Part shown: positions 18,548 through 47,345 of the stretch, one piece after another
Position numbering within the stretch: the stretch's first letter is position 1
Layout: every line of letters begins with the position of its first letter
From: Deltaproteobacteria bacterium GWC2_42_11
GTDB lineage: Bacteria; Desulfobacterota; GWC2-55-46; UBA9637; GWC2-42-11
Direction: 5' to 3'
Length of the DNA stretch: 64,000 bases
NCBI GenBank assembly: GCA_001797495.1
Contig: MGPS01000070.1
Location: 15,879-79,878 of the forward strand
Notes under the pieces: generated by a model
What the model was told of the DNA's origin: nothing
Databases searched by the model: none
What the model saw: the letters and a program-made list of their open reading frames with translations, nothing else
Program-made: the position numbers and the translations under genes

Positions 18548-18715
18548 CGGTGTGCCTAATGCACAAGATGTTCACACCCAAAAATGCCCAGATGCAAGGC
18601 GGAGCAAGGCTTCAAGCGAGGCATACTTTCATAGTATGTTGAGCGAAGAAGCCGCAGCGACAACACACGGGGCACCCATTGCGGAGCAATGGGTCGGGGT
18701 ATTTTTGGGCGTGAA
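18548..18715 (-). repeat. Dispersed ~170-nt intergenic repeat (family R2), reverse orientation
   Basis: The reverse complement aligns with 38976-39140 over the core GTTGTCGCTGCGGCTTCTKCGCTCAACATACT...AAGTATGCC...TTGCTCCGCCTTGCA. Confidence 0.7.
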
Positions 18716-20068
18716 CTACGATGCCTTTTTCATAATGTCTTTAAAAATATACCAACTCTTGAGATACTCTACAGCCCTTTTTAACTGTATATCTTCTGCA
18801 TCACCCTTTTCCTTTTCGGTTTTCTCCTCAACTTTTATCTTTTTATCCTTTTCAGGTGCGGCGCCTTCTGCCTCAAGATGTCTTTCAAGGTCTTTTTCCC
18901 TCAAAATGCCTCTTGCACCGCCGTCTTTCGGGTCCTCAACCACTATATCAGGTTCAATGCCCTTTGCCTGGATAGATCTGCCTGATGGTGTATAATATTT
19001 TGAAGTTGTAAGCCTTAAGGCAGAACCGTCGCTCAGCGGGATTATAGTCTGCACAGAACCTTTGCCGAATGTCTGCACTCCGAGGACTACAGCCCTCTTG
19101 TGGTCCTGCAAAGCGCCTGCAACAATCTCAGAGGCGCTTGCGCTCCCGCTGTTCACAATAACTATTATCGGATAGTCAGGCTGTGTCCCTTCTGCCTTTG
19201 CCTCAAATTTCATATCCTGTCCTGCAATTCTCCCCTTTGTATAAACTACCATGCCAGATTTGAGGAATTTGTCAGATACCTCAACTGCTTGTGTAAGGAG
19301 TCCGCCTGGATTGTTCCTTAAGTCAAGTATAAGCCCTTTGAAATTCTCATTTCTTGAACCGAGTTTGTTAAAGGCGTCTTCGAGGTCGCTGCCGGTCCTT
19401 TCCTGGAATTGTGTAATCCTTATATAGCCAATACCGTCTTCAAGCGGTTTAAATTTGACGCTCTTTACCTCTATTACATCTCTTATTATTTCAAACGGCT
19501 TCGGTTCCTTGAAACCTTCCCGCATAATATATATTGTAACCTTTGTACCTTTCGGTCCCCTCATCAGTTTTACTGCGTTTGTCAGGCTCATGTCCTTTGT
19601 ATGCGTATCATTAATTTTGACTATCCTGTCACCTGCCTTTAAACCTGCCCTGAATGCAGGTGTATCCTCAATTGGGGATATAACAGTCAAGATATTGTCC
19701 TTTACACCTATCTCTATCCCTATGCCGCCGAAACTCCCTTTTGTCTCGACCTGCATCTCCTTGTAGTCTTCAGGCGGCATAAATGACGAGTGCGGGTCAA
19801 GGCTCTGGAGCATCCCTTTTATTGCACCGTATATAAGTGTTTTTGGGTTAACCTCTTCTGTATAATTTTCCTGCACAGTTGCAAGTGCATCCGTGAAAAT
19901 CCTTATATTCTCATATGCCTTTACAGGGACTGCGGATACCTTGTAACTTATACCTCCGGTAAATATTATAACTGCCGCAGCAACAGCAGTTAATAGTAGT
20001 ATCTTCTGCCCGAAAATCCCTTTTACAATTCTCATGTCTTTACATTCCTCCTTAATTTTTATGTGCAA
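18716..20068 (-). CDS. ctpA: Carboxyl-terminal processing protease (S41 family, PDZ domain)
   Basis: A PDZ domain and an S41 core are present (GGLLTQAVEV, TSGSASASEIVAGALQD). Confidence 0.85.
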   Translation of the reverse strand: MHIKIKEECKDMRIVKGIFGQKILLLTAVAAAVIIFTGGISYKVSAVPVKAYENIRIFTDALATVQENYTEEVNPKTLIYGAIKGMLQSLDPHSSFMPPEDYKEMQVETKGSFGGIGIEIGVKDNILTVISPIEDTPAFRAGLKAGDRIVKINDTHTKDMSLTNAVKLMRGPKGTKVTIYIMREGFKEPKPFEIIRDVIEVKSVKFKPLEDGIGYIRITQFQERTGSDLEDAFNKLGSRNENFKGLILDLRNNPGGLLTQAVEVSDKFLKSGMVVYTKGRIAGQDMKFEAKAEGTQPDYPIIVIVNSGSASASEIVAGALQDHKRAVVLGVQTFGKGSVQTIIPLSDGSALRLTTSKYYTPSGRSIQAKGIEPDIVVEDPKDGGARGILREKDLERHLEAEGAAPEKDKKIKVEEKTEKEKGDAEDIQLKRAVEYLKSWYIFKDIMKKAS

Positions 20069-21287
20069 GCCATATCATGGGGTCCTTCGGCACCCCTTTA
20101 TACCTCACCTCAAAATATAGTCGTGGACCTTCCAAAGAGCCCGAATCACCTACCTCTGCTATGACGTCCCCGTTTTCTACTATATCGTCCAGTTCCTTTA
20201 ATACCTTTGAAAGATGGGCATACAGTGTATAAAAGCCGTCCCCGTGGTCAAGTATTATAATCCTTCCATAACCCTTCAGCCAGCCTGAATATATTACCTT
20301 ACCCCTGTAAACTGATTTTACATCAGTTCCAATAGATGCCTCAATAGATATGCCGTTATTGAAGGTTGTCGTATGGAATTTCGGGTGCTCGACCTTACCA
20401 TATAATAAAACGATTTTACCTTTCACAGGTATCATGAGTCTGCCCTTCATTGCACCGAACCCTGTTGACGGGAAAGGGGTTAAATCCCTTACCGCATAAT
20501 CTTTGTCTTTTGCTGTTTCCTTTTCACTTTCCTGTTTTTTCTTTAATTCGTCTATAAATGTCTGGAGTTCTTTTGATGTCTTTTCAAGTTCTTTTATTGC
20601 TGAAAAATGTAAGTCCTTTTCCTTCCTGATGGTATTCAGGAGTGCAACCCTTTTCCCCTTTTCTTGAGCGATATCCCTCTTCTTTGCTTCTACACTGCTT
20701 TTTATAGACAGCATATCAGTTCGCATATCTTCGAGTTTCCTTTTTTCACCCTCAAGGACATCCTTGTTTTCATTATACTCCTCAAGGAGCCTGACATCGG
20801 AGTCTATAACCAGATTAATATACTTATACCTTTTTGAGAGGTCGTTGAAAGAGTTGGAAGAAAACAGGATTCTTAAATTACCGCCGCCCCTCATCTTATA
20901 CATTGATACAACCCTTTTCCTGAGTAAGTGTAATATACGCCCCCTCTCCCTTAAGAGTTCAATTATCCGTCTGTCTGTAATATCTATCCTCGTTTTAAGC
21001 CTTTTGAGGCTGCTTTCTATCTTTGCGAGTTCGTCCTCTTTCTTTGCCAGTTCCCTTTCAAGTTCATCCAGCGAGGTTAAAACAGAGGTCTCTTTTCTGC
21101 CTATTATGTCAAGTTCCTGTTTTTTTGTCTGTATCTCCTTTTCTACTGTCTCCAGTTTTTTCTCTTTTTTAATAATCTCCTGCTTGGTTTTCTGACCCCC
21201 CTTTGCATATACATAGAGAGGTGTCAGCAGAAGACAGAGGGTTATGATTACTTGATATTTAAAGACTTTCTTTAAACCGTCCTGCAA
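20052..21287 (-). CDS. envC: Murein hydrolase activator EnvC-like protein (coiled coil + M23 peptidase domain)
   Basis: A long coiled-coil N-terminal region is followed by a C-terminal LytM/M23 domain (GISIEA...GKVIYSGWLKGYGRIIILDHG). Position after ftsEX supports the call. Confidence 0.75.
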   Translation of the reverse strand: MQDGLKKVFKYQVIITLCLLLTPLYVYAKGGQKTKQEIIKKEKKLETVEKEIQTKKQELDIIGRKETSVLTSLDELERELAKKEDELAKIESSLKRLKTRIDITDRRIIELLRERGRILHLLRKRVVSMYKMRGGGNLRILFSSNSFNDLSKRYKYINLVIDSDVRLLEEYNENKDVLEGEKRKLEDMRTDMLSIKSSVEAKKRDIAQEKGKRVALLNTIRKEKDLHFSAIKELEKTSKELQTFIDELKKKQESEKETAKDKDYAVRDLTPFPSTGFGAMKGRLMIPVKGKIVLLYGKVEHPKFHTTTFNNGISIEASIGTDVKSVYRGKVIYSGWLKGYGRIIILDHGDGFYTLYAHLSKVLKELDDIVENGDVIAEVGDSGSLEGPRLYFEVRYKGVPKDPMIWLAHKN

Positions 21288-21292
21288 TTTGT

Positions 21293-22198
21293 CTAACCCT
21301 GCTTTAAAAACCTTGTTAGGGAGATAAAACTCCCGAAAACACCCATAGCAGTACCAATGCCCAATAATATTATCATAAAATCCGTTACTGGAAAAGGTAT
21401 ATTTATAAGACTGCTGAAAGACGCAGGGATGTTCTTAAGCAGCATGTATCTTACTGCATTGAACATAATAAAGGCGAGTATTGCGCCTGCCAATCCTTCA
21501 AACAGCCCCTCTATAAAAAAGGGTGTTTTTATGAAAGATTCTGTTGCACCTACAAGCCTCATGATATCTATCTCCTCCTTCCTTGCATATACAGTAAGCC
21601 TGATAGTATTGGAGATTATAAAGATCGTTGATATAAGTAGGAATACACCTATAATCAGTCCGGCAGCCTTAAAAAAACTTAAAAATGCAGTGAACCTGTC
21701 CACCCATTCCTGTCCATAGTGGATGTCGTCTATCCCCTCCAGCACTTTTAGTTTTGCAACGATTGTCCTTACGCCGTCAGAATTTCTGAAAGGTTTCTTA
21801 AGCCCTATCTCAAATGAGGATGGGAGAGGGTTTGCGCCGAGTTCATCCAGTATCCCCTTTTGCCCCTTGAGTTCGTTTTTGAAAACCTGAATTGCCATTT
21901 CCTTTGAGACATAATTTATACTGTCAACCTCTGTAAAGCTTCTTATCTTCTCTTTCATCGGGGAAGTGCTGTCTGACCTGATATCTTCTTTCAGGTATAC
22001 GATTACCTGAACATCTGCGCCAAATGTGTCAAGCATGTCCTCCATATTGATAAAGAATACAGCGAATGATGTCAGGATGGTCAGGGCAAGGGATATTGTA
22101 AATATTGCGACCATGTTTGTGAAGAGGTTGCCCTTTATGTTATGAGATGCCTCTTTTACAAAGAACAGGATTCGTCTTATGAGGAGGGATATTGTCAT
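21293..22198 (-). CDS. ftsX: Cell division permease-like protein FtsX
   Basis: Four-TM FtsX topology with a large periplasmic loop. Overlaps the ftsE stop. Confidence 0.8.
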   Translation of the reverse strand: MTISLLIRRILFFVKEASHNIKGNLFTNMVAIFTISLALTILTSFAVFFINMEDMLDTFGADVQVIVYLKEDIRSDSTSPMKEKIRSFTEVDSINYVSKEMAIQVFKNELKGQKGILDELGANPLPSSFEIGLKKPFRNSDGVRTIVAKLKVLEGIDDIHYGQEWVDRFTAFLSFFKAAGLIIGVFLLISTIFIISNTIRLTVYARKEEIDIMRLVGATESFIKTPFFIEGLFEGLAGAILAFIMFNAVRYMLLKNIPASFSSLINIPFPVTDFMIILLGIGTAMGVFGSFISLTRFLKQG

Positions 22199-22857
22199 TC
22201 TTTTTCCTGTATTACCTTTCCGCCTTCAAGCGTTATTGTCCTTTTATTTAACTTCTTAATAAGGCTGCTGTCATGCGTTGCTATTACAACGGTCGTCCCT
22301 TTTGCATTTATGTCCAGAAATAATTCCATAATACTGTTCGTGAGTGCAGGGTCAAGATTCCCTGTTGGTTCGTCTGCAAGTAGTATGGTCGGTTCTTTTA
22401 CAAGCGCCCTTGCGATTGATGCCCTTTGCTGTTCTCCTCCTGATATAGAGAGGGGTTTATAATTTGCACGGTGCTGTAGCCCGAGGTACGAGAGCACATA
22501 CGAAACCTTTTTCTTTATTTCTCTTGGGCGATGTCCGATAATATCAAGGGGCAATGCCACATTTTTATATACTGTCTTATTGCTGAGCAGTTTAAAATCC
22601 TGGAATATAAAACCGATCTTCCTCCGGAGTTCTGCTATCTCCCTTGTGCCGAACCTTGAAGTATTTTTGCCATCTATTATTATCTGGCCGCCTGTTGGTT
22701 TCTCTGAACAGAAAATGAGTTTAAGGAGGGTTGTCTTGCCTGCACCGCTCGGACCTGTCAGGAATACAAACTCACCTTTTTCCACAACAAACGATATATC
22801 AGTCAGTGCAGGACTGCTGCCATTATAGTTCTTATATACATGGTATAACTGAATCAT
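22195..22857 (-). CDS. ftsE: Cell division ATP-binding protein FtsE
   Basis: Walker A (GPSGAGKTT), signature (LSGGEQQR), Walker B (ILLADEPTGNLD) and H-loop are all intact. Confidence 0.9.
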   Translation of the reverse strand: MIQLYHVYKNYNGSSPALTDISFVVEKGEFVFLTGPSGAGKTTLLKLIFCSEKPTGGQIIIDGKNTSRFGTREIAELRRKIGFIFQDFKLLSNKTVYKNVALPLDIIGHRPREIKKKVSYVLSYLGLQHRANYKPLSISGGEQQRASIARALVKEPTILLADEPTGNLDPALTNSIMELFLDINAKGTTVVIATHDSSLIKKLNKRTITLEGGKVIQEKE

Positions 22858-22861
22858 ATAG

Positions 22862-22996
22862 TTATAAATAATTCCTAAATCCTAATATCTAATTTCTAAT
22901 AAAATATCCAATGACTAAATTTCCAATGCCTTTATCTTTGACATTTGACATTTTATTAGGAATTAGGATTTAGAAATTAGACATTTTATTAGAGGC
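22862..22996. repeat. Large imperfect palindrome between nadE and ftsE
   Basis: ctaaatcctaat pairs with attaggatttag, and tctaatttctaataaaat pairs with attttattagaaattag. The arms flank a ~45-nt centre. Confidence 0.5.
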
Positions 22997-22997
22997 A

Positions 22998-24785: not shown

Positions 24786-24834
24786 GTTTTTTAGCCTATC
24801 AAAAGGTATCAGGATTGTAAATATTAAAAACAAT

Positions 24835-25018
24835 CCGTAAAATAGCGATTAAAAACCTCGCTATTTTACAAACCTGCGATTTGCCTGCCATACTTCGTTA
24901 TCGGACAATTTTTACTCCTCACCGTATCGGTGAACATACGGCTCGTCGTAAAAATTGTCCGCTGCCTCGTCTGGCAGGCAACTTGCAAGTTTCCCCAAAA
25001 ATCAAAGTCTATTTTTGG
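24835..25018. repeat. 184-nt structured dispersed element (family R1), copy 1
   Basis: More than 90% identical to 53828-54011. It contains several perfect hairpins (aaaatagcga/tcgctatttt; ggacaatttttac/gtaaaaattgtcc; gcctgcca/tggcaggc; cccaaaaat/atttttggg). Confidence 0.75.
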
Positions 25019-25142
25019 GCAATGGATAATGGTCTACGCTTGCAATAAATTTATCCTGTAATAAATCCTGTAATAAATTTATCCTTGACAACTTGAGTAG
25101 AATTGTATTATGAATTAACACACAATTTAATATAGATATATG

Positions 25143-25259
25143 CTTATTCAGAGTGGTGGAGGGACTGGCCCTGTGAAACCACAGCAACCGGCCTGTTGCA
25201 AACGGGCGGCAGGTGCTAACTCCAGCAAGGTTTGTGATTAAAAAGCCTTGAAAGATAAG
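25143..25259 (+). promoter_or_regulatory. SAM-I (S-box) riboswitch
   Basis: P1 pairs CUUAUUCAGAG with CUUGAAAGAUAAG. Conserved cores GGUGGAGGGACUGGCCC, GUGAAACC, CAGCAACC and GGUGCUAACUCCAGCA are present. Confidence 0.85.
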
Positions 25260-25274
25260 ATTAGGTAATAAAAG

Positions 25275-25307
25275 CCTCTTCTTGATTTCAAGAAGGGGTT
25301 TTTTTTT
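25275..25307 (+). terminator. Riboswitch expression-platform terminator
   Basis: gcctcttcttga-tttc-aagaagggg hairpin followed by a T9 run. Confidence 0.7.
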
Positions 25308-25341
25308 GCAAATCATCAAAAGAAACAATAAGGAGCAGGAT

Positions 25342-26595: not shown

Positions 26596-26677
26596 CCAAT
26601 TTTGCAGGCACGGTTTCAACCGTGCTTTATTTGCACGAATAAATTCGTGCCTACATTTTTGAGGAAGGAGATAAAAT

Positions 26678-27637: not shown

Positions 27638-27638
27638 A

Positions 27639-27872: not shown

Positions 27873-27880
27873 AAAACAGA

Positions 27881-29562: not shown

Positions 29563-29587
29563 GACAACATTCTGCGAATGTTGAATT

Positions 29588-29687
29588 GTAAATTGAAGAT
29601 TGGAAGTTGGAAATTTTAAAATGGAATAAAAAGACAATTTGCAATTTAAATTTTACAATTTTCATTTTACAATTAGAGCGAAGCGAC
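29588..29687 (+). repeat. 105-bp duplicated leader element, copy 1 (upstream of mec)
   Basis: Near-identical to 30083-30197. It contains tandem gaagattg/gaaaattg octamers, then ttgcaatttaaattttacaattttcattttacaattagagcgaagcgac ending at the start codon. Confidence 0.7.
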
Positions 29688-29688
29688 C

Positions 29689-30099
29689 ATGCTTTATCTA
29701 TCTAAAGACATATATAACGAGATTATCAGCCATGCTGAGAAATCATACCCTTATGAAGGATGCGGTGTTCTTGTAGGCAGGGATAAGAGGGTTGTGAAGA
29801 TTTGTCCTGTTGAGAACATAAACAAAGACAGGGCAAATGACAGGTATGAGATAGACCCAAAGGATTTGCTCAGGGTTGAGAAAGGGGTGTCCGAAAAAGG
29901 GCTGAATGTCCTTGGGTTTTTTCATTCACATCCTGACCATCCTGATATGCCGTCTGAGTTTGACAGACAAAGGGCATGGCAATTTTATTCGTATATGATT
30001 GTATCTGTGCATAATGGAAAATCTGTTTCAGTAAAATCATGGACATTTGAAGATGAAAATGAACCATTCAGAGAGGAGGAGGTAAAGATTGAAGATTGA
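29689..30099 (+). CDS. mec: JAMM/MPN+ metalloprotease (Mec-like sulfur-carrier peptidase)
   Basis: EGCG...HSHPDHPDMPSEFD JAMM motif. Confidence 0.8.
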   Translation: MLYLSKDIYNEIISHAEKSYPYEGCGVLVGRDKRVVKICPVENINKDRANDRYEIDPKDLLRVEKGVSEKGLNVLGFFHSHPDHPDMPSEFDRQRAWQFYSYMIVSVHNGKSVSVKSWTFEDENEPFREEEVKIED

Positions 30100-30197
30100 A
30101 AATTGAAAATTGGAAATTGGAAATTTTAAAATGGAATAAAAAGACAATTTGCAATTTAAATTTTGCAATTTTCATTTTACAATTAGAGCGAAGCGAC
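30083..30197 (+). repeat. 105-bp duplicated leader element, copy 2 (upstream of E1-like gene)
   Basis: See copy 1. The 5' part overlaps the last codons of mec. Confidence 0.7.
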
Positions 30198-35923: not shown

Positions 35924-36640
35924 ATGAGGATTGAAGACCTTACAGAAGAGACGTTAAAACAACTGAATGCAATGCCTGCAGATGAACTCATCAGATGGGC
36001 ATTTGATAATTTTGGTGAAAGGGCTGCAATAGGCACTAGTTTTCAATTGACAGGCACAGTAATTATTGATATTGCCAACAGGCATTTAAAAAAAATCAGG
36101 GTGTTTACTATAGATACCCTGCGGCTGCACCCAGAGACATATGAGGCACTCAATAATACTGAAGAAAGATATGGGTTGGCAGTGGAGAGGTTTTACCCTG
36201 ATGAAGATACATTAAAAAATATGCTGGAAAGGTTTGGAGAATACCTCTTTTTCATGGACAAGGCTAAACAGGAATACTGCTGTTTTGTACGAAAGGTTGA
36301 GCCGAACAGGCGCGCACTTAAAACACTTGATGTCTGGATAACAGGTTTGAGGAGAGACCAGTCGGATTACAGGAAAGATGTGCCAAAGGCATCTGTAATT
36401 GAAGAGGACAGCAGGAAGATATTAAAGATATCTCCGCTTGCTGACTGGGATATGGATAAGATATGGCACTATATAAAAGAGAACAATGTGCCATACAATA
36501 AACTCTTTGATATGGACTATGACAGCATCGGCTGCATAATATGCTCAACACCCCTTGTTGAAGGCGAGCCGCCCCGCTCAGGCAGGTGGAGGTGGTTTCA
36601 TAAAGAGGATGATAAGAAGGAGTGCGGGATACATAAATAG
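35924..36640 (+). CDS. cysH: Phosphoadenosine phosphosulfate / adenylylsulfate reductase (thioredoxin-dependent)
   Basis: PAPS_reduct fold with a C-terminal ECGIH catalytic Cys motif. Confidence 0.8.
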   Translation: MRIEDLTEETLKQLNAMPADELIRWAFDNFGERAAIGTSFQLTGTVIIDIANRHLKKIRVFTIDTLRLHPETYEALNNTEERYGLAVERFYPDEDTLKNMLERFGEYLFFMDKAKQEYCCFVRKVEPNRRALKTLDVWITGLRRDQSDYRKDVPKASVIEEDSRKILKISPLADWDMDKIWHYIKENNVPYNKLFDMDYDSIGCIICSTPLVEGEPPRSGRWRWFHKEDDKKECGIHK

Positions 36641-36775
36641 TTCACGCTGAAGAATGTCCATCTGCGGCGTTGTTGCTGCAGCTTCTGCGCTCAACATACT
36701 ACAAAGTATGCCTCGCTTGAAGCCTTGCTCCGCCTTGCATCTGTGCCATTCTTGAGCATGAACTTGTTGTGAAGT
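36638..36775 (+). repeat. Dispersed intergenic repeat family R2, shorter copy
   Basis: agttcacgctga...ctgcggcgttgttgctgcagcttctgcgctcaacatactacaaagtatgcctcgcttgaagccttgctccgccttgca. It begins at the cysH stop codon. Confidence 0.65.
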
Positions 36776-36805
36776 ATTTTCATTTTAGAAAAGGAGGCAT
36801 AAATA

Positions 36806-37963
36806 ATGCCAGGTTTGATTGAGCCGCATGGCGGTAAACTTGTAAACATGATACTGGAGGGAAAGGAGAGAGAAGATGCTCTAGAGAGGTCAAAGAAACT
36901 TAAGAAGGTGATTTTGAATGACAGGGAAGTTTCTGATATTGAGATGATTGCAATCGGTGCTTTCAGTCCTTTGGACGGCTTTATGAAAAGGGATGACTAC
37001 CACAGTGTTATGGACAATATGAAACTATCAAATGGTCTTCCGTGGACAATACCTATTACCCTGTCAGTTACAAATGATGAGGCAGCGGATCTGAAGGAAG
37101 GGGAAGATGTAAGCCTTGTCAATAAAGATGGGGAGATACTTGCTGTTATGCAGATTGAAGAAAAGCACAACCACGATAAGGAAAAGGAGTCGCTGCAGGT
37201 TTATGGGACAGGGGATATGGCACATCCCGGTGTTGCAAAGGTTTTTGAGATGAGAGATGTCCTGCTTGGAGGCAGGGTATCAGTTGTGCACAGGATAAAA
37301 CAGGAAAAATTTAATCAATACAGGCTTGACCCAGAAGAAACAAGGACGTTATTCAAGGAGAAGGGATGGAAAAGGGTTGTAGGTTTCCAGACAAGAAATC
37401 CTATACACAGGGCACATGAATATATCCAGAAATGTGCGATGGAGGTTGTTGACGGACTGATGATACACCCGATTGTAGGTGAGACAAAGGGTGATGATAT
37501 ATCTGCAGATGTAAGGATGAAATGCTACGAGGTTCTCCTTGAAAACTATTATCCGAAAGACAGGGTTATGCTTGTTGTTAATCCTGCAGCGATGAGGTAT
37601 GCAGGCCCAAAAGAGGCAATATTCCATGCCCTTATAAGGAAGAACTACGGTTGTACCCATTTTATTGTGGGGAGAGACCATGCAGGGGTTGGCAACTACT
37701 ACGGTTCCTTCGATGCCCATTATATATTTGATGAGTTTGACCCGCAGGAGATAGGCATAACACCGATGTTCTTTGACCATACATTCTACTGCAAAAGATG
37801 TGAAAGTATGACGTCGTACAAGACATGCCCGCATGACTCCAGTTGTCATATTACGCTTTCCGGGACAAAGGTTAGGGAGATGCTGAAGGCAGGAGTCATC
37901 CCGCCTGCTGAGTTTTCAAGACATGAGGTTGCAAAGATTTTAATAGATGCGATGAAGCAGTAG
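36806..37963 (+). CDS. sat: Sulfate adenylyltransferase (ATP sulfurylase)
   Basis: QTRNPIHRAHE and GRDHAG motifs are present. Confidence 0.9.
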   Translation: MPGLIEPHGGKLVNMILEGKEREDALERSKKLKKVILNDREVSDIEMIAIGAFSPLDGFMKRDDYHSVMDNMKLSNGLPWTIPITLSVTNDEAADLKEGEDVSLVNKDGEILAVMQIEEKHNHDKEKESLQVYGTGDMAHPGVAKVFEMRDVLLGGRVSVVHRIKQEKFNQYRLDPEETRTLFKEKGWKRVVGFQTRNPIHRAHEYIQKCAMEVVDGLMIHPIVGETKGDDISADVRMKCYEVLLENYYPKDRVMLVVNPAAMRYAGPKEAIFHALIRKNYGCTHFIVGRDHAGVGNYYGSFDAHYIFDEFDPQEIGITPMFFDHTFYCKRCESMTSYKTCPHDSSCHITLSGTKVREMLKAGVIPPAEFSRHEVAKILIDAMKQ

Positions 37964-38000
37964 GCAGAACGCGGGAAACGCGGGAAAGGTTACGGACATT

Positions 38001-38975
38001 ATGTCAAAAGGACCTATTTCAAAATTTATTGAGACGCATTATCTGCACTTTAATGCTGCTGTGCTTGTGGATGCTGCGAAGGCATACGAGTCGCATATAA
38101 ACGAACGCGGAAAGATGATGATAACCCTTGCAGGGGCAATGAGCACTGCGGAACTCGGGAAATCTCTATCTGAGATGATACGAAAGGACAAGGTTCATAT
38201 TATTACATGCACAGGTGCTAATATTGAGGAGGATGTCTTCAATCTTGTGGCACATAATTACTATAAGAGGGTTCCGCATTACCGCGAGTTAAGTCCTGAT
38301 GATGAGTGGAATCTTATGCAGGATGGTTTCAACCGTGTAACTGATACCTGTATTCCTGAAGATGAGGCAATCAGGAGGATAGAGCGCCATATATTTGACC
38401 TGTGGAAGGACGCTGACAGAAGCGGCAAAAGATATCTGCCCCATGAATATTTTTATCAGTTGTTGAAAAGCGGGGTATTAAAACAATATTATCAGATTGA
38501 CCCAAAAGACTCATGGCTTCTTACTGCATGTGAAAAGAACCTTCCTGTTATTGTGCCGGGCTGGGAAGATTCAACACTCGGAAATATCTTTGCCTCATAT
38601 TGTGTAACAGGCGAGTTAAAAGCGGTTACTGTAAAATCAGGGATAGAATACATGGTATCTCTTGCTGACTGGTACATGGAAAATTCAAAGGGGAAGGGAA
38701 TCGGCTTTTTCCAGATAGGAGGAGGTATTGCAGGTGATTTTCCAATATGTGTTGTGCCCATGCTTAGGCAGGATCTGAAAAAGGCTGATACACCTTTCTG
38801 GAGTTACTTCTGCCAGATTTCTGATTCCACAACAAGTTACGGCTCATATTCCGGCGCAGCGCCAAATGAAAAGATAACATGGGGTAAGTTGAGTAAAAAT
38901 ACACCAAGATTCATCATTGAATCAGATGCGAGTATAGTTGCACCGCTTGTGTTTGCATGGGTGCTGGGATGGTAA
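38001..38975 (+). CDS. Deoxyhypusine synthase-like protein (homospermidine synthase-like)
   Basis: Deoxyhypusine synthase family pattern (GAMSTAELG...ITCTGANIEED...GGGIAGDF). Confidence 0.65.
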   Translation: MSKGPISKFIETHYLHFNAAVLVDAAKAYESHINERGKMMITLAGAMSTAELGKSLSEMIRKDKVHIITCTGANIEEDVFNLVAHNYYKRVPHYRELSPDDEWNLMQDGFNRVTDTCIPEDEAIRRIERHIFDLWKDADRSGKRYLPHEYFYQLLKSGVLKQYYQIDPKDSWLLTACEKNLPVIVPGWEDSTLGNIFASYCVTGELKAVTVKSGIEYMVSLADWYMENSKGKGIGFFQIGGGIAGDFPICVVPMLRQDLKKADTPFWSYFCQISDSTTSYGSYSGAAPNEKITWGKLSKNTPRFIIESDASIVAPLVFAWVLGW

Positions 38976-39140
38976 AATAGTTAACGTTGAAAATACCCCG
39001 GCCCATTGCTTTGCAATGGGTGCCCCGTGCGTTGTCGCTGCGGCTTCTGCGCTCAACATACTGCAAAAGTATGCCCCCCGACAGTTTCAATCGGGGGTTT
39101 GCTCCGCCTTGCAGATGGGCAATTTTTGAGCGTCAACTAC
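38976..39140 (+). repeat. Dispersed intergenic repeat family R2, full-length copy
   Basis: aatagttaacgttgaaaatacccc...cccattgctttgcaatgggtgccccgtgcgttgtcgctgcggcttctgcgctcaacatactgcaaaagtatgcc...ttgctccgccttgcagatgggcaatttttgagcgtcaac. Confidence 0.7.
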
Positions 39141-39174
39141 CAATAAAATGTATTGTTAAGAGGTAGAGTATATA

Positions 39175-40131
39175 ATGTCTTCTTATCCTTTAAGTGTAAT
39201 GCACAACTTCGGCGGTCTGGATGAGAAGGCATCCTCATTCAAAAAGGCAAAGTTTGTTGTCCTGCCTGTTCCGTATGATATGACAGCATCTTATCAGAGC
39301 GGGACAAGAAAAGGTCCGTATGCAATCATTGATGCGTCAACCCATATGGAATTATATAATGAGGAACTGGACATAGAGGCATATAAGGTCGGGATACACA
39401 CAATGCCTTATCTGGAGCCAACCTCAAAAGGTCCTAAGGAGATGGTGGATATTGTTTATGAGGCATCCAGCTATATAGTGAACTTAGATAAAATTCCGGT
39501 TATGCTCGGCGGTGAGCACAGTATAACCCTGGGGCTTGTCAGAGCGCTTAAAAAAAAATATCCGAATATGTCTGTTCTTCAACTGGATGCACATGCAGAC
39601 ATGAGGGATAAATATCAGGAAAGCCCGTATAACCATGCGTGTATTGCAAGGAGAATATCAGAGATGTGTCCGATTGTTCAGGTTGGCATAAGGAGTTTAA
39701 GTGTTGAAGAGGCAGAGTTCTTAAAAAAGGGGTTGGAACACAGAACACAGAAGTCAGAAAAAACGCATCACGCATCACACATCACGCATCACAGTATCCA
39801 TACCTATTTTGCAAAGGATATTATAAGAGGCATCCCTGTAGAGGATATATGCAGTAATCTGACGAATGAAGTTTTTATTACCATTGACCTTGATGTGTTT
39901 GACCCTTCAATTATGCCTGCAACAGGAACCCCTGAACCAGGAGGGTTGATGTGGTATGAAGTGACGGGATTATTGAGGAACATTGCTGCTAAAAAAGAGA
40001 TAATCGGTTTTGATGTGGTTGAGTTGTGCCCGCTGGCAGGTAATTTATCTCCGGATTTCCTTGCTGCAAAACTTGTTTATAAGATGATGGGATATATAGT
40101 AAAAGACAAAAAAGCAGACTATAGACTTTAA
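39175..40131 (+). CDS. speB: Agmatinase / arginase-family ureohydrolase
   Basis: Arginase-fold Mn-ligand motifs are present (GGEHSIT, DAHADM, DLDVFDPS). It carries a His-rich insertion encoded by a nucleotide repeat. Confidence 0.8.
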   Translation: MSSYPLSVMHNFGGLDEKASSFKKAKFVVLPVPYDMTASYQSGTRKGPYAIIDASTHMELYNEELDIEAYKVGIHTMPYLEPTSKGPKEMVDIVYEASSYIVNLDKIPVMLGGEHSITLGLVRALKKKYPNMSVLQLDAHADMRDKYQESPYNHACIARRISEMCPIVQVGIRSLSVEEAEFLKKGLEHRTQKSEKTHHASHITHHSIHTYFAKDIIRGIPVEDICSNLTNEVFITIDLDVFDPSIMPATGTPEPGGLMWYEVTGLLRNIAAKKEIIGFDVVELCPLAGNLSPDFLAAKLVYKMMGYIVKDKKADYRL

Positions 40132-40187
40132 AGTAGACCATAGACTAAAGACTAAAAAGTCTAAAGTCTATAGTCTAAAGTCTAAAC
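40112..40187. repeat. TAGACT palindromic repeat element (family R3), copy C
   Basis: gcagactatagactttaaagtagaccatagactaaagactaaaaagtctaaagtctatagtctaaagtctaaac. It supplies the last codons and stop of speB. Confidence 0.65.
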
Positions 40188-40206
40188 AAGAAGGAGGACT
40201 TGAAAA

Positions 40207-41681: not shown

Positions 41682-41698
41682 ACATTTAGTAAATTAGC

Positions 41699-42721
41699 AT
41701 GAATGTTGCCATAACATACAACATAAAAAAGAAAGAGACTTTAACAGAGAATCTCCCCCCTGATTTTTATGCTGAATGGGATGATGATGAGACAATAGAC
41801 GCAATAAGGGATGCTGTCTCAAAAAGGCATGAGGTGGTTTTAATAGAGGCAGATAAAGAGGGGTATCAGAAACTTGTAAAAGAAAAACCTGATATGGTTT
41901 TTAATATTGCAGAGGGCATTAACGGCAGAAACAGGGAATCCCATATCCCTGCCATGCTGGAGATGCTCGGGATACCATATACAGGTTCAGGTCCTCTGAC
42001 ACTTGGCATCTGCCTTGATAAGGCAAGGGCAAAAGAGATACTCTCTTATTACAATATTCCAACTGCCAGATTTTTTGTATCACACTCAGCGCTCAGCGCT
42101 CAACACTCGGCGCTCTCCTTCCCCCTCATTGTCAAACCCCTTTATGAGGGTTCAAGTAAGGGCATAAGGAATGACTCTATAGTCTATAATATTGACGACC
42201 TCAATAAAAAGACTGAATGGGTCATTAACGAATACAGGCAGCCTGCCCTTGTCGAGGAATTCCTTGATGGGAGGGAGTTTACAGTCGCCGTGATGGGCAA
42301 TGGTGATGAAGTAAATTGCCTTCCTATTGTTGAAATAAATTATTCAACACTCCCTGAAGGGGTAAACCCGATTTATTCCTATGAAGCAAAGTGGCTATGG
42401 GATACACCTGATAACCCGCTGGAGATATTCACCTGTCCGGCACAGATAGAAGCCGAATTAACCCAGAGGATAGAAGAGATATGCAAAAGGGCGTTTCAGG
42501 TTCTGGACATCAAAGACTGGTGCAGGATAGATATAAGACTGGATGGTAAAGGTACTCCGCACATCCTGGAACTTAATCCGCTGCCGGGGATACTGCCTGA
42601 CCCTAAAAGTAATTCATGTTTTCCAAAGGCAGCAAGGGCTGCTGGCATGGATTACAATAGACTTATAAATACAGTACTTGATATTGCGTGTAAGAGATAT
42701 GGTATTTATGGCAACCGCTGA
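41699..42721 (+). CDS. D-alanine--D-alanine ligase family ATP-grasp protein, paralog 1
   Basis: Ddl-family motifs (GIPYTGSGPLTLGICLDK, LIVKPLYEGSSKGI, the ELNPLPG region) are present. The family tolerates an in-frame SALSAQHSALS repeat insertion. Confidence 0.65.
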   Translation: MNVAITYNIKKKETLTENLPPDFYAEWDDDETIDAIRDAVSKRHEVVLIEADKEGYQKLVKEKPDMVFNIAEGINGRNRESHIPAMLEMLGIPYTGSGPLTLGICLDKARAKEILSYYNIPTARFFVSHSALSAQHSALSFPLIVKPLYEGSSKGIRNDSIVYNIDDLNKKTEWVINEYRQPALVEEFLDGREFTVAVMGNGDEVNCLPIVEINYSTLPEGVNPIYSYEAKWLWDTPDNPLEIFTCPAQIEAELTQRIEEICKRAFQVLDIKDWCRIDIRLDGKGTPHILELNPLPGILPDPKSNSCFPKAARAAGMDYNRLINTVLDIACKRYGIYGNR

Positions 42722-43733
42722 AAAAATTACCATAACATACAATGACGATTTAGATATTGGAAGAAGGGATATTGATTGCTCAATTTCCTGCGAGGGGGTT
42801 ATTGATACAGCGATGTCCGTAAAAAAGGCGATAGAAGGGGGTGGTATAACTTTGGTACTTGTTCCATTGGAAGATAACCCTTATGCATTTATAGATACGC
42901 TCCGCCGAAGTGCACCCGATATAATCTTTAACCTGTGTGAAGGGGCATTAGGTTTGAGTTCAATGGAGATGAATGTGGCTTCTTTCTATGAACTGTTTGG
43001 CTTCAGATATACAGGTTCAGGACCTTTGACATTAGGTTTGTGCCTTAATAAGGGACTTGCCAAAAACATATTGTGTGCAAACAGCGTCCCGACGCCTGCA
43101 TATACTGTTGTTAAAGGCACAGGTTTACTTGCAGATATCGGCATAAATTTTCCGCTTATTGTAAAGCCTCTGCAGGAAGATGCAGGTATAGGCGTGGACA
43201 GCAGTGCGGTTGTGCACGATACCGAATCACTTAAAAAGAGGGTCCAATATATATTAGATGTTTGCAAACAGCCTGCACTGGTTGAGGAGTATATTAACGG
43301 GAGGGAATTCAATGTATCGGTCATGGGCAATGGAGATGATTTAAGGGTATTGCCTGTTTCGGAGATAGATTTTTCAGGACTGCCTGAAGACATGCCTCGT
43401 CTGGTTGGCTATGAGGCAAAATGGGTTGCCGCAAGCATATCTTATAAGAATACAGTACCTGTATGCCCTGCAAAGGTATCAGAAGATTTAAAAGAAAGGC
43501 TGTCGTCTATAGCAGTAAAGGCTTACAGGTTGATGGGCTGCCGTGATTATGCCAGGGTTGATATAAGGATGGGAAAGGATAATGTGCCAAAGGTGCTTGA
43601 GGTTAACCCCAACCCTGACATATCGCCTGATGCAGGTATTGCAAGAAGCGCTTTTGCAGCGGGAATGACCTACAGCACACTCATACATGAGATAATAAAA
43701 TGTGCCATGAGCAGATACGGCTGTAATGAGTGA
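42708..43733 (+). CDS. D-alanine--D-alanine ligase family ATP-grasp protein, paralog 2
   Basis: Same motif set as paralog 1 (GFRYTGSGPLTLGLCLNK, LIVKPLQEDAGIGV, EVNPNPD). Overlaps paralog 1 by 14 nt. Confidence 0.65.
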   Translation: MATAEKITITYNDDLDIGRRDIDCSISCEGVIDTAMSVKKAIEGGGITLVLVPLEDNPYAFIDTLRRSAPDIIFNLCEGALGLSSMEMNVASFYELFGFRYTGSGPLTLGLCLNKGLAKNILCANSVPTPAYTVVKGTGLLADIGINFPLIVKPLQEDAGIGVDSSAVVHDTESLKKRVQYILDVCKQPALVEEYINGREFNVSVMGNGDDLRVLPVSEIDFSGLPEDMPRLVGYEAKWVAASISYKNTVPVCPAKVSEDLKERLSSIAVKAYRLMGCRDYARVDIRMGKDNVPKVLEVNPNPDISPDAGIARSAFAAGMTYSTLIHEIIKCAMSRYGCNE

Positions 43734-43754
43734 CAGGAACAATACTGAACGGAT

Positions 43755-44231
43755 ATGGAGATACGAAAGGTTTCATCAGATGACAGGGATACAATAATCT
43801 CGATAATTAACAGAAATGTCAACTTTACAGCAGAAGAAAAAGATTGTGCTGCTGAACTTCTGGATATTTATCTCGGAAATCCATGTCAGAATGACTATGA
43901 CTTCTTCTGTGCAGTAAATGAAGGTAATAAGGTTATTGGATACATCTGCTACGGCAGAGTCCCTTTAACAGAATCCACCTATGACCTCTACTGGATAGTT
44001 GTTGACCCTCTGTTCCATAGCATGGGGATTGGCAAAATGCTTGTCAATTATCTTGAAAGTATGTTAATAAATATCAGGGCAAGAATGCTTCTGGCAGAGA
44101 CATCATCAAGGTCAGATTATTACAAAACCAGGGTTTTCTATGAACAGAATAGTTTTACAGAGGCAGCAAGGATAAAGGATTTTTACAGGGCAGGCGACGA
44201 TAAAATAATATATAAAAAGACTTTTGTTTGA
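43755..44231 (+). CDS. GNAT-family N-acetyltransferase
   Basis: Acetyl-CoA binding pattern (HSMGIGKMLVNYLE). Confidence 0.6.
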   Translation: MEIRKVSSDDRDTIISIINRNVNFTAEEKDCAAELLDIYLGNPCQNDYDFFCAVNEGNKVIGYICYGRVPLTESTYDLYWIVVDPLFHSMGIGKMLVNYLESMLINIRARMLLAETSSRSDYYKTRVFYEQNSFTEAARIKDFYRAGDDKIIYKKTFV

Positions 44232-44283
44232 TAAATAATAGAGAGAGGTATTAGTAAATACGGTTTTTTTTAAAGGAGGAGTT

Positions 44284-44904
44284 GTGTTGGAAACAGAAAC
44301 AATAAAAAAGATATATGCGGGCTATTCAAATGCATATGATGCAATCTTTAAAAGGTTCTTTTTCCCGAGAATAAAACATGCCATTGCAACTATGGATATA
44401 AGACATGGCGACAAGGTTCTGGATGTCGGCGTTGGTACAGGTCTTTCCCTCCCTCTGTTCCCCAGATACTGTGATGTTACCGGAATAGATATATCTTCCG
44501 CTATGTTAAAAAAAGCAAAGGAAAAGACAAACAAACTGAATTTGAACCACATTGAACTCATGGAAATGGACGCTATGAACCTGGAATTTCCTGATAACAG
44601 TTTCGACAAGGTCTTTATATCCCATGTTGTAAGCGTCGTACCTGACCCTTATAAAACAATGTCAGAGGTAAAGAGGGTATGCAAGAGAAATGGGAAAATC
44701 GTTGTAGTCAATCATTTCAGGAGTCCTAACAAAATGGTTGGGAGTGTTGTAAGGATGCTGAACCCTATAACGAAAAAGATAGGCTGGAGGACAGACCTGT
44801 CTTTAGACGAGTTTATAAAAAAAGCAAACTTATGTGTAGAAAAGAAATATAAATTGAAGAAGATAGACCTCTGGTATGTTATATTCGCCGTGAATGAAAA
44901 ATAA
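44284..44904 (+). CDS. Class I SAM-dependent methyltransferase
   Basis: Motif I VLDVGVGTG is followed by an acidic residue and post-I and II motifs. Confidence 0.7.
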   Translation: MLETETIKKIYAGYSNAYDAIFKRFFFPRIKHAIATMDIRHGDKVLDVGVGTGLSLPLFPRYCDVTGIDISSAMLKKAKEKTNKLNLNHIELMEMDAMNLEFPDNSFDKVFISHVVSVVPDPYKTMSEVKRVCKRNGKIVVVNHFRSPNKMVGSVVRMLNPITKKIGWRTDLSLDEFIKKANLCVEKKYKLKKIDLWYVIFAVNEK

Positions 44905-45421
44905 GCCAATCCCTGACAAGCCGTATATATGTCCTGATGCGGACATAACCATCCTTCCCATGTCCCGCAATGATATTGATGAAATTCTAGAAATAGAAAA
45001 TGTGTCTTTCCCTGGACCGTGGTCAATGTCCATTTTTGAAAAAGAACTCAAAAACCCCTTTTCTTTTCCGTTTGTGGCACGATTTGATAAGACTGAAACC
45101 AAGACCATTGCCGGATATATAATAGTCTGGCTTGTCGCAGAAGAGGCGCATATATTAAACCTTGCTGTCCATCCTGATTTCAGGAGAAAGGGGATAGCCC
45201 GATTACTGCTGGAATTCATGCTGGACTTTCTTGCCGGAAGGTCTGCAAGGGTTGTGTATCTGGAGGTGAGGAGGTCAAATATTTCAGCACAAAGACTTTA
45301 CATGGGTTTTGGTTTCAGCGAGATAGGAGTCAGGAAGGAATATTATTCTGACAATAAGGAAGATGCTATAGTTATGGGGCTTGAGATGGCTTGCAAAAGC
45401 AGGGCAGCAAAGGTCGTATGA
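44894..45421 (+). CDS. RimI-like GNAT acetyltransferase
   Basis: RimI-like pattern (IENVSFPGPWS...ILNLAVHPDFRRKGIARLLL). Confidence 0.6.
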   Translation: MKNKPIPDKPYICPDADITILPMSRNDIDEILEIENVSFPGPWSMSIFEKELKNPFSFPFVARFDKTETKTIAGYIIVWLVAEEAHILNLAVHPDFRRKGIARLLLEFMLDFLAGRSARVVYLEVRRSNISAQRLYMGFGFSEIGVRKEYYSDNKEDAIVMGLEMACKSRAAKVV

Positions 45422-46302
45422 TATCAGAGGTTCTTTATAATAAAAATGTATTACCGTCTTATTACAAACTGGGGCTTGCTGTTGGGAGAGAATTTGACGG
45501 TGCTGTGCCGGGACAGTTTGTTATGCTGAGGATAAGCGGACAATTAGACCCGTTTTTGCGCAGACCTTTTGGAATATACAAAAGGTGGGATCAAAAGATA
45601 GGATCACCCCGTTTAGATGGGTCAAAGGCGGGTGCCCTCTGGGCGCGGTCAAGCAGCAAAGGGCAAAAGATAGAGATACTTTATAAGGTAGTAGGGAAAG
45701 GCACAGGGATTATGTCAGGACTAAAAATAGGTGATAGGGTTGATATTCTTGGACCCTTTGGTAATACATTCCCTTCAGCAGAGAGAAATAAAAACATTAT
45801 TATGGTAGCAGGCGGTATAGGTATTGTGCCGTTTTACCTCCTTGCCAAAGGGTGCAAGAAAACATGGGTTGGGTTGAAACTTCTGTTTGGCGGAAAAAGC
45901 AAGGAAGACCTCCCTGGTCTGGATGATTTTAAAAAACTTAAGATTGATGTGTCTGTTTCCACAGATGATGGCAGCGTGGGAGAGAAGGGCATGGTAACAA
46001 AACTTCTCTTGAAGGAGTTATTAGGAAGGGATTTAAGTTCAGCAGTTGTATATGCATGCGGCACAAAACCAATGCTCAAGACAGTTGCAGATATAGCAGA
46101 TAGAAACAACATTCCGTGTTATGTTTCCCTTGATAATGTAATGGCTTGCGGTATAGGTGCATGTCTTGGGTGTGCTGTAAAAGTAACGGGGTCAAAGGTT
46201 CAAGGAGTCAAGGGGTATAGAAACAACTCACAACTCTACAAGATGGTTTGCAAGGACGGGCCTATATTTGATGCAAGGGATATAGATTGGGAAGCGATAT
46301 GA
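45418..46302 (+). CDS. pyrK: Dihydroorotate dehydrogenase electron-transfer subunit
   Basis: FAD/NAD-binding fold with C-terminal [2Fe-2S] cysteines (CGIGACLGC). Start is at MISEVL. It contains a ~25-aa low-complexity insertion. Confidence 0.75.
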   Translation: MISEVLYNKNVLPSYYKLGLAVGREFDGAVPGQFVMLRISGQLDPFLRRPFGIYKRWDQKIGSPRLDGSKAGALWARSSSKGQKIEILYKVVGKGTGIMSGLKIGDRVDILGPFGNTFPSAERNKNIIMVAGGIGIVPFYLLAKGCKKTWVGLKLLFGGKSKEDLPGLDDFKKLKIDVSVSTDDGSVGEKGMVTKLLLKELLGRDLSSAVVYACGTKPMLKTVADIADRNNIPCYVSLDNVMACGIGACLGCAVKVTGSKVQGVKGYRNNSQLYKMVCKDGPIFDARDIDWEAI

Positions 46303-47231
46303 AAAAGGGCAAAGGGCAAGAGATAAATTTATCTGTAACCATCGCAGGGATAGAACTTAAAAATCCTGTGATGACAGCATCAGGCACATTCGGGTACGGT
46401 GAGGAATTCAGCCCCTTTGTTGACTTTAATAAACTTGGCGCTGTTGTTGTGAAAGGGCTATCCCTTAAACCAAGGCAGGGCAACCCATCTCCAAGGATTG
46501 TTGAGACACCGGCAGGTATGCTTAATGCCATAGGGCTTCAGAATGTTGGTGTTGAAGTATTTATAAAAGAGAAACTTCCGTTTTTAAGAAAATATAATGT
46601 GCCTGTGATTGCAAATATCTTTGGCGAGAATGTCAGAGAATATGCAGAGGTGGCAAAAAGGCTTGATGAAACAGATGGCATTGCAGGTCTTGAAATAAAC
46701 ATATCCTGTCCAAATGTAAAAAAGGGCGGCATTGTATTCGGCATAAATCCGAAAGAATCTGCAAAGGTAATAAGGGCTGTAAAGAAGGCAACTCGGTTTC
46801 CTGTTGTTACCAAACTCTCCCCGAATGTTACGGATATAAAAGTCATGGCAAAGGCTGCGGAGGATGCAGGAAGCGATGCTATATCCCTTATCAATACTAT
46901 CACAGGCATGGCAATTGATGTTGAAACAAGGAAACCTAAACTGGCAAATATTACAGGCGGGCTGTCAGGTCCGGCAATAAGACCAATTGCTGTGAGGATG
47001 GTTTGGGAGGCTGCAAAGGTTGTTAAAATTCCGATTATCGGCATAGGCGGCATAATGACAGCCAGTGACGCCCTTGAGTTTATAATAGCAGGTGCAGCAG
47101 CAGTTCAGATAGGCACAGCAAACTTTGTTGAGCCTGATGCAGCGATAAAGATACTTGAAGGGATTAAGGACTACTGCATGAGGCATGGGGTTAAAAGATT
47201 GAAGGGACTGATAAGGAGTTTAGGTAGTTGA
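46299..47231 (+). CDS. pyrD: Dihydroorotate dehydrogenase catalytic subunit (class 1B)
   Basis: NPVMTASGTFGYG, LEINISCPN and IGIGGI motifs are present. Confidence 0.85.
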   Translation: MKKGKGQEINLSVTIAGIELKNPVMTASGTFGYGEEFSPFVDFNKLGAVVVKGLSLKPRQGNPSPRIVETPAGMLNAIGLQNVGVEVFIKEKLPFLRKYNVPVIANIFGENVREYAEVAKRLDETDGIAGLEINISCPNVKKGGIVFGINPKESAKVIRAVKKATRFPVVTKLSPNVTDIKVMAKAAEDAGSDAISLINTITGMAIDVETRKPKLANITGGLSGPAIRPIAVRMVWEAAKVVKIPIIGIGGIMTASDALEFIIAGAAAVQIGTANFVEPDAAIKILEGIKDYCMRHGVKRLKGLIRSLGS

Positions 47232-47345
47232 CGCTGACATGCGGCTTTTTCGCTCAACATTTCCATTGCAAAAGAAGCCCGAAGGGTTTGGATGTTAATC
47301 TTTTGCACCATGTTAGCCGCCGTTGCAGGCATCCATTAAAATAGA
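47229..47345 (+). repeat. Degenerate copy of repeat family R2
   Basis: agttgacgctgacatgcggctttttcgctcaacat... aligns with the R2 5' half. It begins at the pyrD stop codon. Confidence 0.45.

Follow-up and report, generated by a model that had tools for sequence, protein, structure and literature searches.

R2, a mosaic intergenic hairpin repeat joined to stop codons, and its possible role as an mRNA structure in Deltaproteobacteria bacterium GWC2_42_11 and aquifer metagenomes

In a 64,000-nucleotide stretch of the genome of Deltaproteobacteria bacterium GWC2_42_11 (contig MGPS01000070.1, positions 15,879 to 79,878; hereafter the window), a dispersed repeat, designated R2, recurs directly at the 3' ends of protein-coding genes. 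R2 is a family of long hairpins in which a covarying closing stem encloses a nearly invariant core, the orientation follows the upstream gene, the 5' end abuts or contains the stop codon of that gene, related genomes differ in the orthologous junctions that carry a copy, and the copies at shared sites are conserved beyond neutral expectation. The family belongs among the known intergenic repeats of the repetitive extragenic palindrome (REP), enterobacterial repetitive intergenic consensus (ERIC) and MITE (miniature inverted-repeat transposable element) type and is not a new kind of system. In the reading favored here, to which we give about an even chance, R2 is a non-coding, non-autonomous mosaic palindrome of uncultivated groundwater bacteria, of the kind represented by REPs, bacterial interspersed mosaic elements (BIMEs), ERIC and Correia elements, acting as a co-transcribed mRNA hairpin between cistrons or at transcript 3' ends; both this function at the RNA level and the mode of spread are what we infer from the sequences.

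The inventory of the window comprises three intact copies, one decayed copy and one 32-nt remnant of a related subfamily. Copy 1 (18570-18718, minus strand), supported by sequence, nhmmer and a covariance model, combines a type A outer stem with an optional hairpin module, CCCATTGC..GCAATGGG; the TAG of its TAGTTCACG (18716-18718, minus strand) is the stop codon of a ctpA-like gene (Peptidase_S41/PDZ), and the gene downstream, Polysacc_deac_2, is co-directional. Copy 2 (36638-36764, plus strand; sequence, folding, nhmmer and covariance model) is the basic 124-nt form, composed of a 5' arm (~36639-36662), a core (~36663-36740) and a 3' arm (~36741-36764); cysH (PAPS_reduct) terminates at the TAG at 36638-36640, and the start codon of sat (ATP sulfurylase) follows at 36806, preceded by its native ribosome-binding site (RBS), AAAAGGAGG. 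Copy 3 (38978-39138, plus strand; sequence, nhmmer and covariance model) is of type A with two optional hairpin modules, GCCCATTGC..GCAATGGG at 39001-39020 and CCCCCGA..TCGGGGG at 39075-39097; the TAA stop (38973-38975) of a deoxyhypusine-synthase-family gene is followed by 2 nt and then by TAGTTAACG, while an arginase-family gene begins downstream at 39175. Copy 4 (~47225-47335, plus strand, 3' limit approximate) is degenerate, as first described: TAGTTGACGCTGA and the core piece TGCGGCTTTTTCGCTCAACAT are retained, the remainder is rearranged and the 3' arm is lost, leaving just the first 13 nt of the element together with that core piece, and the covariance model does not detect it. Here pyrD (DHO_dh, dihydroorotate dehydrogenase) reads AGT TGA, its stop being the TGA at 47229-47231 inside GTTGAC, and a separate canonical hairpin with a T-run follows the copy. 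A fifth related fragment, overlooked in the preliminary description, lies at 8858-8889 on the minus strand; it represents 32 nt of a type C 5' arm (TAATACAAACGCAATAAATGYCTTTATACTGC), is identical at 30 of 32 positions to a full type C copy in locus L242 (within 11951-12085), and contains the TAA stop of the minus-strand open reading frame (ORF) 8887-9177.

The four copies of the preliminary description were found at their positions and align over shared modules, and this sharing exceeds chance. The 23-nt core pattern GCGGCTTCTKCGCTCAACATACT has 3 matches in the window against 0.00 expected in 100 shuffles, TTGCTCCGCCTTGCA occurs exactly in the three intact copies matched by that pattern, and an nhmmer profile of the three good copies recovers them at E = 1e-36 to 1e-48; their covariance-model scores are 148, 98 and 33 bits. 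The length of ~170 nt given at first is to be revised, as copies 1, 2 and 3 measure 147, 124 and 158 nt from stem to stem, and cccattgc..gcaatggg, listed as a shared module, is present in copies 1 and 3 but is an optional module of those two copies only. The contact with the upstream stop codon holds for all four genes, three of the upstream ORFs ending within the first bases of the element and one ending 2 nt before it, although pyrD uses the TGA inside GTTGAC rather than TAG. The orientation of the copies tracks gene direction for genes on opposite strands as well (copy 1 vs copies 2-4), and the upstream genes have no common functional theme.

Structure prediction, which had been recommended for the family, yields a long irregular hairpin with a strongly covarying closing stem. 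Across a length range of 124-175 nt, each copy folds as one such hairpin with an energy of -46 to -71 kcal/mol, and the two ends of the element, whose nature as inverted repeats had escaped notice, form a closing stem of 22-25 bp. The outer helix comprises 17 pairs across 49 basic-length copies taken from independent sites. Both partners have changed in 11 of these pairs, and 90.2% of cells overall are paired, compared with 37-45% in slid-partner controls; the observed pairing and covariation score was equalled by none of 500 shuffles. The fourth base of GTTNAC illustrates this behavior, as it and its partner are C-G in 31 copies, G-C in 11, T-A in 9 and mismatched in 4 (chi-square p = 5e-17). 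A G.G mismatch and a bulged A are likewise conserved.

Enclosed by this stem is an asymmetric, nearly invariant core of ~80 nt, which contributes two more helices as well as an A-rich apical loop and reads, in order, CATCTGC, a small hairpin, GGCTTC...GAAGCC, CATAC-loop-GTATG and TTGCTCCGCCTTGCATCTG. Sequence variation in the core is concentrated in loops, and its unpaired stretches are invariant. The same core is combined with at least five unrelated self-complementary closing stems, of which types A (GTTCACGCTGAAAAATGCCC), B (CGGCTTCGTAAAAAGTCC) and C (TACAAACGCAATAAATGCC) are recurrent and types D and E are single examples. Compensatory changes preserve the helices of the B-variant arm (CACAGCA/TGCTGTG) and of the core-2 variants GGATTTGCA/TGCAAACC and GGGCTTAAA/TTTAATCCC, and also the inner helices of a diverged core. 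Small hairpins of different sorts sit nested in the element at fixed positions, and some variants have lost most of the core or have its apical half replaced. Given these exchangeable closing stems and nested modules, R2 is a mosaic element, and an unusual one in that its interior rather than its termini is conserved.

Some of the nested modules occur outside R2 as well. A two-hairpin module with GTAGT...ACTAC-like ends stands alone in an intergenic region of the window (~55800-55850) and, nested, also makes up the apical portion of certain R2 copies, so that small hairpin modules appear to move independently; the further loci recorded for this module are L242 15700-15770, L014, L074 and L105. 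The hairpin GGGAACAGATTTAAAATCTGTCCCC (~14333-14358), located just past a fluoride riboswitch, recurs nested in the R2 variants of L075, L131 and L186.

No R2 match was obtained from Rfam 15 at the gathering threshold over the window, nor at E <= 10 over 36600-39200. BLAST against annotated plasmid and phage collections returned no match, a literature search with R2 sequence strings gave chance matches only, and scans of the sense strand of the elements revealed no sigma-70-like promoter and no terminator-like match.

The wider census relied on pattern searches in JGI/ENA metagenomes and in a genome set with one genome for each species; it is a sample chosen through the conserved core, on contigs selected through the element, rather than a genome-wide count, and its totals are lower bounds. 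A search of the collected sequences with nhmmer gave at least 169 matches in 135 sequences, and at least 134 copies with both ends defined cluster by their flanks into 75 independent sites. Among the matches listed, the carriers are seven aquifer metagenome-assembled genomes labelled Deltaproteobacteria, one labelled Nitrospirae and a single contig placed in a Nanoarchaeia bin; true R2 copies are also present on numerous metagenome contigs from aquifers. The bias in orientation and placement anticipated for such a census is present. Over the 240 nt upstream, just the strand of the element is open at 49 sites, just the opposite strand at 6 and both strands at 14 (binomial p = 1.8e-9 for 49 vs 6), and purine skew agrees (53 sense vs 8). 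The elements are located either in the 3' flank of a terminal gene or in the short interval that separates a stop codon from the RBS of the following gene; at least 30 of the 75 lie inside operons, where the start of a co-directional gene, equipped with an RBS of its own, is 14-59 nt (median 30) downstream.

In all 48 sites where the upstream stop can be placed, it begins -12 to +8 nt from the first base of the element, with peaks at -2 (the TAG of the element), -3, -6 and +8, and all three frames are used; at offset +8, the gene reads three codons into R2 and ends at the TGA or TAA of the element. The 5' end holds stop codons in two frames, namely TAG at -2 and TGA at +8 in type A, and TRA at -3 and TAA at +8 in type B, whose 5' tag is TRA+CGGC. 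The triplets are conserved regardless of whether they serve as the real stop of the gene: type A copies have T at -2 in 33/55, A at -1 in 39/55 and G at 0 in 50/55, with a mixed -3 position (T 20, A 19, G 14), and 18/19 type B copies carry T at -3. The stops are consequently part of the element itself. Selection in short spacers was considered as the sole cause of stop adjacency and rejected, because copies with no nearby downstream gene have the same stop offsets and reverse-oriented copies sit 11-32 nt from the neighboring stop instead of abutting it.

Comparison of orthologous junctions reveals both presence and absence of R2. All contigs with an identical CysH have copy 2, and a relative with 86% CysH identity carries R2 at the identical cysH junction, its contig ending inside the repeat. 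A syntenic contig of JACRNI01 (84% identity) is devoid of copies 2 and 3 and has R2 after a Usp-family gene, after a PvlArgDC-family gene and ~150 nt past sat, in addition to a type C copy directly adjoining the sat stop. The counterparts of these junctions in the window are a 14-nt gap for Usp and an overlapping TAATG for PvlArgDC. Three junctions, cysH|sat, Usp|APS kinase and PvlArgDC|next gene, are available in both filled and empty form. In each of them the native stop lies at the same codon, the RBS is untouched, R2 stands directly after the unchanged stop, and no direct repeat is found in these three pairs. Among the collected loci, other repeats are present in the "empty" alleles, which precludes reading a clean insertion footprint; in the pair L184/L194, for example, the upstream flank is 100% identical and the whole gap differs, including the downstream RBS region and the start codon (ATG vs TTG), which looks like allelic replacement rather than insertion.

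The gap itself is variably filled, being either empty or occupied by unrelated hairpins in relatives. Across relatives, the cysH|sat gap contains four unrelated hairpins, namely R2, a ACAGGTATAGG palindrome, a (AAGGTTNA)n palindrome and a (AATTACGA)n palindrome, the last of which also recodes the CysH C-terminus, and two strains with otherwise identical CysH differ just in this gap and the last few codons. Many further intergenic hairpins of the window also begin within a few nucleotides of a stop codon. On the basis of these alternatives and the stop-abutting hairpins elsewhere, the stop-to-RBS gap acts like a slot in which some hairpin is always present, with R2 as its dispersed, sequence-conserved occupant.

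Locus-specific palindromes built of degenerate 7-8-nt tandem units rich in TAA, TAG and TGA were also recorded at or within a few nucleotides of stops, in the window at 5216-5316, 6403-6478, ~9700-9900, 22858-22997, 29563-29688 and 40116-40190, and in relatives at L237 2218-2308, L240 1500-1615 and L242 10718-10793.

Identity between R2 copies at different sites averages 91% for type A and 94% for type B, and no pair of paralogs reaches 98%, so that a recent burst has not taken place. At shared sites, identity between copies is 92-100%, compared with 57-88% for the flanking coding DNA and 55-76% for its third codon positions, and the elements are therefore not in neutral decay. Judged from these identities, this is an old family without near-identical paralogs that is protected from decay at the neutral rate. 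Gene conversion among paralogs, leading to concerted evolution, was weighed as another source of similarity and is unlikely for the shallower pairs (97-100% at shared sites vs 91% among paralogs); the deepest shared-site pairs (~92%) are no more alike than paralogs, and mosaic identity blocks also weaken two of the shallower pairs. Among four pairs of related contigs (L119/L183, L143/L160, L131/L190 and L154/L168), two lose synteny precisely where R2 has its 3' end, and in the other two a 300-450-bp block of near-100% identity is centred on R2 between flanks that are 80-85% identical. These breaks and blocks suggest recombination at R2 copies or chimeric assembly.

Under the favored reading, R2 would be co-transcribed with the upstream gene, its RNA would fold into the long irregular hairpin with the stop codon within its base, and this hairpin would act as a barrier to 3' exonucleases and/or as a processing site for RNase III or RNase E, setting the relative stability of operon segments; it would not be an intrinsic terminator, and it would spread by duplication or insertion landing directly after stop codons. 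Precedents exist for several of these steps. Correia hairpins are co-transcribed with neighboring genes and their stem is cut by RNase III, and ERIC elements at gene 3' ends form a long RNA hairpin that is processed by RNase E, with an orientation-dependent effect on mRNA decay (PMC10969869). The preliminary description had proposed a transcript 3'-end structure, either terminator or stabilizer, or an integration preference for stop codons, and this overall interpretation is partly supported. A role as stabilizer or 3'-end structure is plausible because the stem covaries and unrelated hairpins fill the same gap in relatives, and an integration preference for stop codons is likewise plausible, because R2 adjoins the unchanged native stop in the three filled/empty pairs and reverse-oriented copies keep a distance from stops.

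Several points weigh against this reading. We infer, rather than observe, the transcription of R2 and any effect on mRNA. A hairpin that merely stabilizes would need neither an invariant 80-nt core with unpaired conserved stretches nor contact with the stop codon. The sense RNA is not singled out as the selected form over DNA or the other strand, because mismatches in the outer stem are balanced between strands (G.U 18 vs A.C 22) and the antisense RNA folds 6.3 kcal/mol better on average; the antisense advantage comes from the invariant core and is not decisive, since that core amounts to effectively one observation, and the small inner hairpin (helix Pa) favors the sense strand (33 G.U vs 8 A.C). 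In two of the best-conserved orthologous pairs the identity blocks run into flanking genes, and recombination tracts or chimeric assembly could explain part of the conservation. As no transposase, target duplication or near-identical paralog pair has come to light, mobility is deduced solely from dispersal and presence/absence.

R2 resembles REPs, BIMEs and REPINs as a high-copy intergenic palindrome situated mostly after co-directional or convergent genes, and BIMEs are themselves palindromes combined mosaically with other small motifs. As with REPs, R2 lies near the 3' end of the upstream ORF and can supply its stop (48/48 stops at -12 to +8). REPs are reported to lie <20 bp from upstream ORF ends, and GTAG-type REP termini to supply TAG stops to flanking ORFs, by analogy with which the stop-codon overlap of R2 is not unprecedented (PMC3733652). 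R2 differs from REPs and REPINs in being 124-175 nt long with a single long closing stem, instead of a 20-40-nt palindrome or an inverted pair, and from REPs in that the GTAG/CGTC tag appears not to be conserved (consensus T-A-G-T-T) and the orientation is locked to the upstream gene. REPINs are reported to conserve their flanking REPs but not the spacer, and to persist for long periods in a lineage (bioRxiv 10.1101/2021.07.10.451892); R2 shares this persistence but differs from REPINs in its conserved interior (~80 nt) and its variable, non-palindromic arms.

The likeness to ERIC, also called IRU (127 bp), lies in an imperfect palindrome of ~125 nt in transcribed intergenic regions and at gene 3' ends and in size variants arising through internal insertions and deletions. 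ERIC has been described as flanked by a TA duplication. R2 has no sequence similarity to ERIC and no TA duplication, is ~88% sense whereas ERIC occurs in both orientations, and is fused to stop codons, with stops in two frames. The Correia (NEMIS) elements of Neisseria are, like R2, non-autonomous, 100-155 bp long and bounded by terminal inverted repeats; their termini contain stop codons, and they bear sites for integration host factor and promoters. In Correia elements, however, conservation lies in the inverted repeats, next to which a TA duplication is found; neither trait applies to R2, which also has no sites for integration host factor, and the sense-strand scan found no promoter in R2. 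The terminal inverted repeats of an IS-derived MITE (such as Correia, ERIC or Chunjie elements) are present, since the R2 arms pair over ~22-25 bp, with 89% of the outer-helix cells paired. A TA target duplication of the Correia or ERIC style was rejected: the 5' flank is TA-rich, and on the 3' side +1 is T in 40/55 copies but +2 is A in just 9/55. The attC sites of integrons are comparable in that they immediately follow ORFs, all pointing one way, as imperfect inverted repeats that vary in length and whose arms are conserved in structure rather than sequence; R2 differs in its ends, GTTNAC...GTN'AAC, which are in the opposite order and have no RRR, in its highly conserved interior, and in its flanks, which are syntenic genes of sulfate-assimilation and polyamine operons rather than cassettes. 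R2 thus lacks the palindrome format of REPs and REPINs, the TA duplication of Correia-like MITEs, the attC core sites and the U-tract of a terminator.

A purely selfish MITE without host function, mobilized by a transposase encoded elsewhere and placed by target choice and the loss of harmful insertions, would account for the dispersal at unrelated genes, the mosaic modules and truncated remnants, the copies at synteny breakpoints and the absence of R2 from orthologous junctions in a related genome that bears it at others; a 5' end that closes two frames would, moreover, render sense insertions at ORF ends harmless. We nevertheless regard it as rather unlikely, as there is no target-site duplication (+2 A in 9/55 on the 3' side), conservation is lowest in the terminal repeats and highest in the interior, opposite to a transposase-bound MITE, stem changes are compensatory, near-identical paralogs are absent, and shared-site copies do not decay at the neutral rate. 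Nor was a transposase found between convergent copies, where the ORFs are HdrB-like and CbiX-like, or near orphan ends; in 1.7 Mb of loci, chosen through the element, there were no gene-enclosing orphan arms, and all orphan arms found were paired 106-141 nt apart, although a parent IS may lie elsewhere. Another reading, in which R2 is a DNA-level element read as folded single-stranded DNA by a Y1 transposase (RAYT or IS200-IS605-like) or a site-specific recombinase, in the manner of REP/REPIN or integron attC sites, would fit the conservation of structure rather than arm sequence, the balance of G.T and A.C mismatches on the strands, the missing target duplication, the subfamily-specific similarity among copies at different loci that exceeds the stem by a few nucleotides at the 5' end and by as much as 20 nt at the 3' end, the common TAG-containing 5' tag (GTAG in some copies) and the same stop-codon habit in REPs. 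This is improbable, because orientation follows gene direction within the 64-kb window and not the replication strand, R2 has 3-5 times the length of a REP and arms that are not palindromes, the pattern of conservation is the reverse of that reported for REPINs (bioRxiv 10.1101/2021.07.10.451892), the attC order of the core sites RYYYAAC...GTTRRRY is not present, the genes on either side are syntenic housekeeping genes, and no RAYT or integrase was seen in the ORFs inspected, which include a part of those in the window.

At the RNA level, the terminator named in the preliminary description can be set aside almost completely: a strong hairpin (-46 to -71 kcal/mol) does stand directly after genes, but no T-run follows the stem as a U-tract would require, the sense strand has no terminator-like match, at least 30 of the 75 copies precede a co-directional gene with its own RBS by 14-59 nt, and copy 4 is trailed by a separate canonical hairpin and T-run. 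Strict orientation, invariant unpaired core bases and exchangeable closing stems are compatible with a dedicated RNA function, in which R2 would be a structured cis-acting RNA, protein-binding or catalytic, whose core would be functional, whose closing stem would need only to pair, and whose position at the stop would couple folding to termination. One core with at least five unrelated closing stems, variable loops beside an invariant unpaired core and covarying stems, the sense-strand wobble excess in helix Pa (33 G.U vs 8 A.C), an orientation that strictly tracks gene direction and conservation above that of flanking coding DNA speak for it; the lack of an Rfam family match even at E <= 10, variants without most of the "essential" core or with the apical half replaced, upstream genes without a functional theme, orthologous junctions that work without R2 or with unrelated hairpins, and a main stem without strand asymmetry speak against it, and we hold it to be unlikely. 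A similarly low probability is assigned to an extended form, in which the core is an undescribed protein-binding or self-processing RNA, the stop in the foot of the closing stem couples folding to termination, and R2 is one occupant of a lineage-wide slot that is rewritten between close strains.

Other repeats and RNAs were noted in the window. A second composite hairpin repeat of 204 nt (24816-25019 and 53809-54012; 91% identical) lies after minus-strand genes; its inner stem ACGGCTCGTCGTAAAAATTGTCCG resembles an R2 type B arm, with covariance-model scores that are weak and generic. Direct repeats of 103 nt at 29585-29687 and 30095-30197, 96% identical and 510 nt apart, bracket the ORF 29689-30099. 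Heptamer tandem repeats of the CATCACG and CTCATCA types occur inside long ORFs (2202-2234, 39757-39793, 56882-56913 and 58600-58636), one of them within the arginase-family gene; as three heptamer units make 21 nt, they may encode short in-frame peptide repeats. The Rfam features, unrelated to R2, are a 6S RNA (9436-9615), a fluoride riboswitch (14267-14328), a SAM-I riboswitch (25141-25261) and one tRNA (53701-53773).

For practical work, R2 breaks metagenome contigs and can mislead gene callers on C-termini. For the biology of such repeats, it provides a quantifiable case, at 75 sites, of an intergenic repeat tied in position to the stop codon and in orientation to the gene, with a conserved interior instead of conserved ends, the reverse of textbook MITEs and REPINs. 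It thereby bears on the old question of whether REP-like elements are selfish DNA or domesticated mRNA punctuation, and the wider pattern, in which slot hairpins are swapped between near-identical strains, is possibly more interesting than R2 itself.

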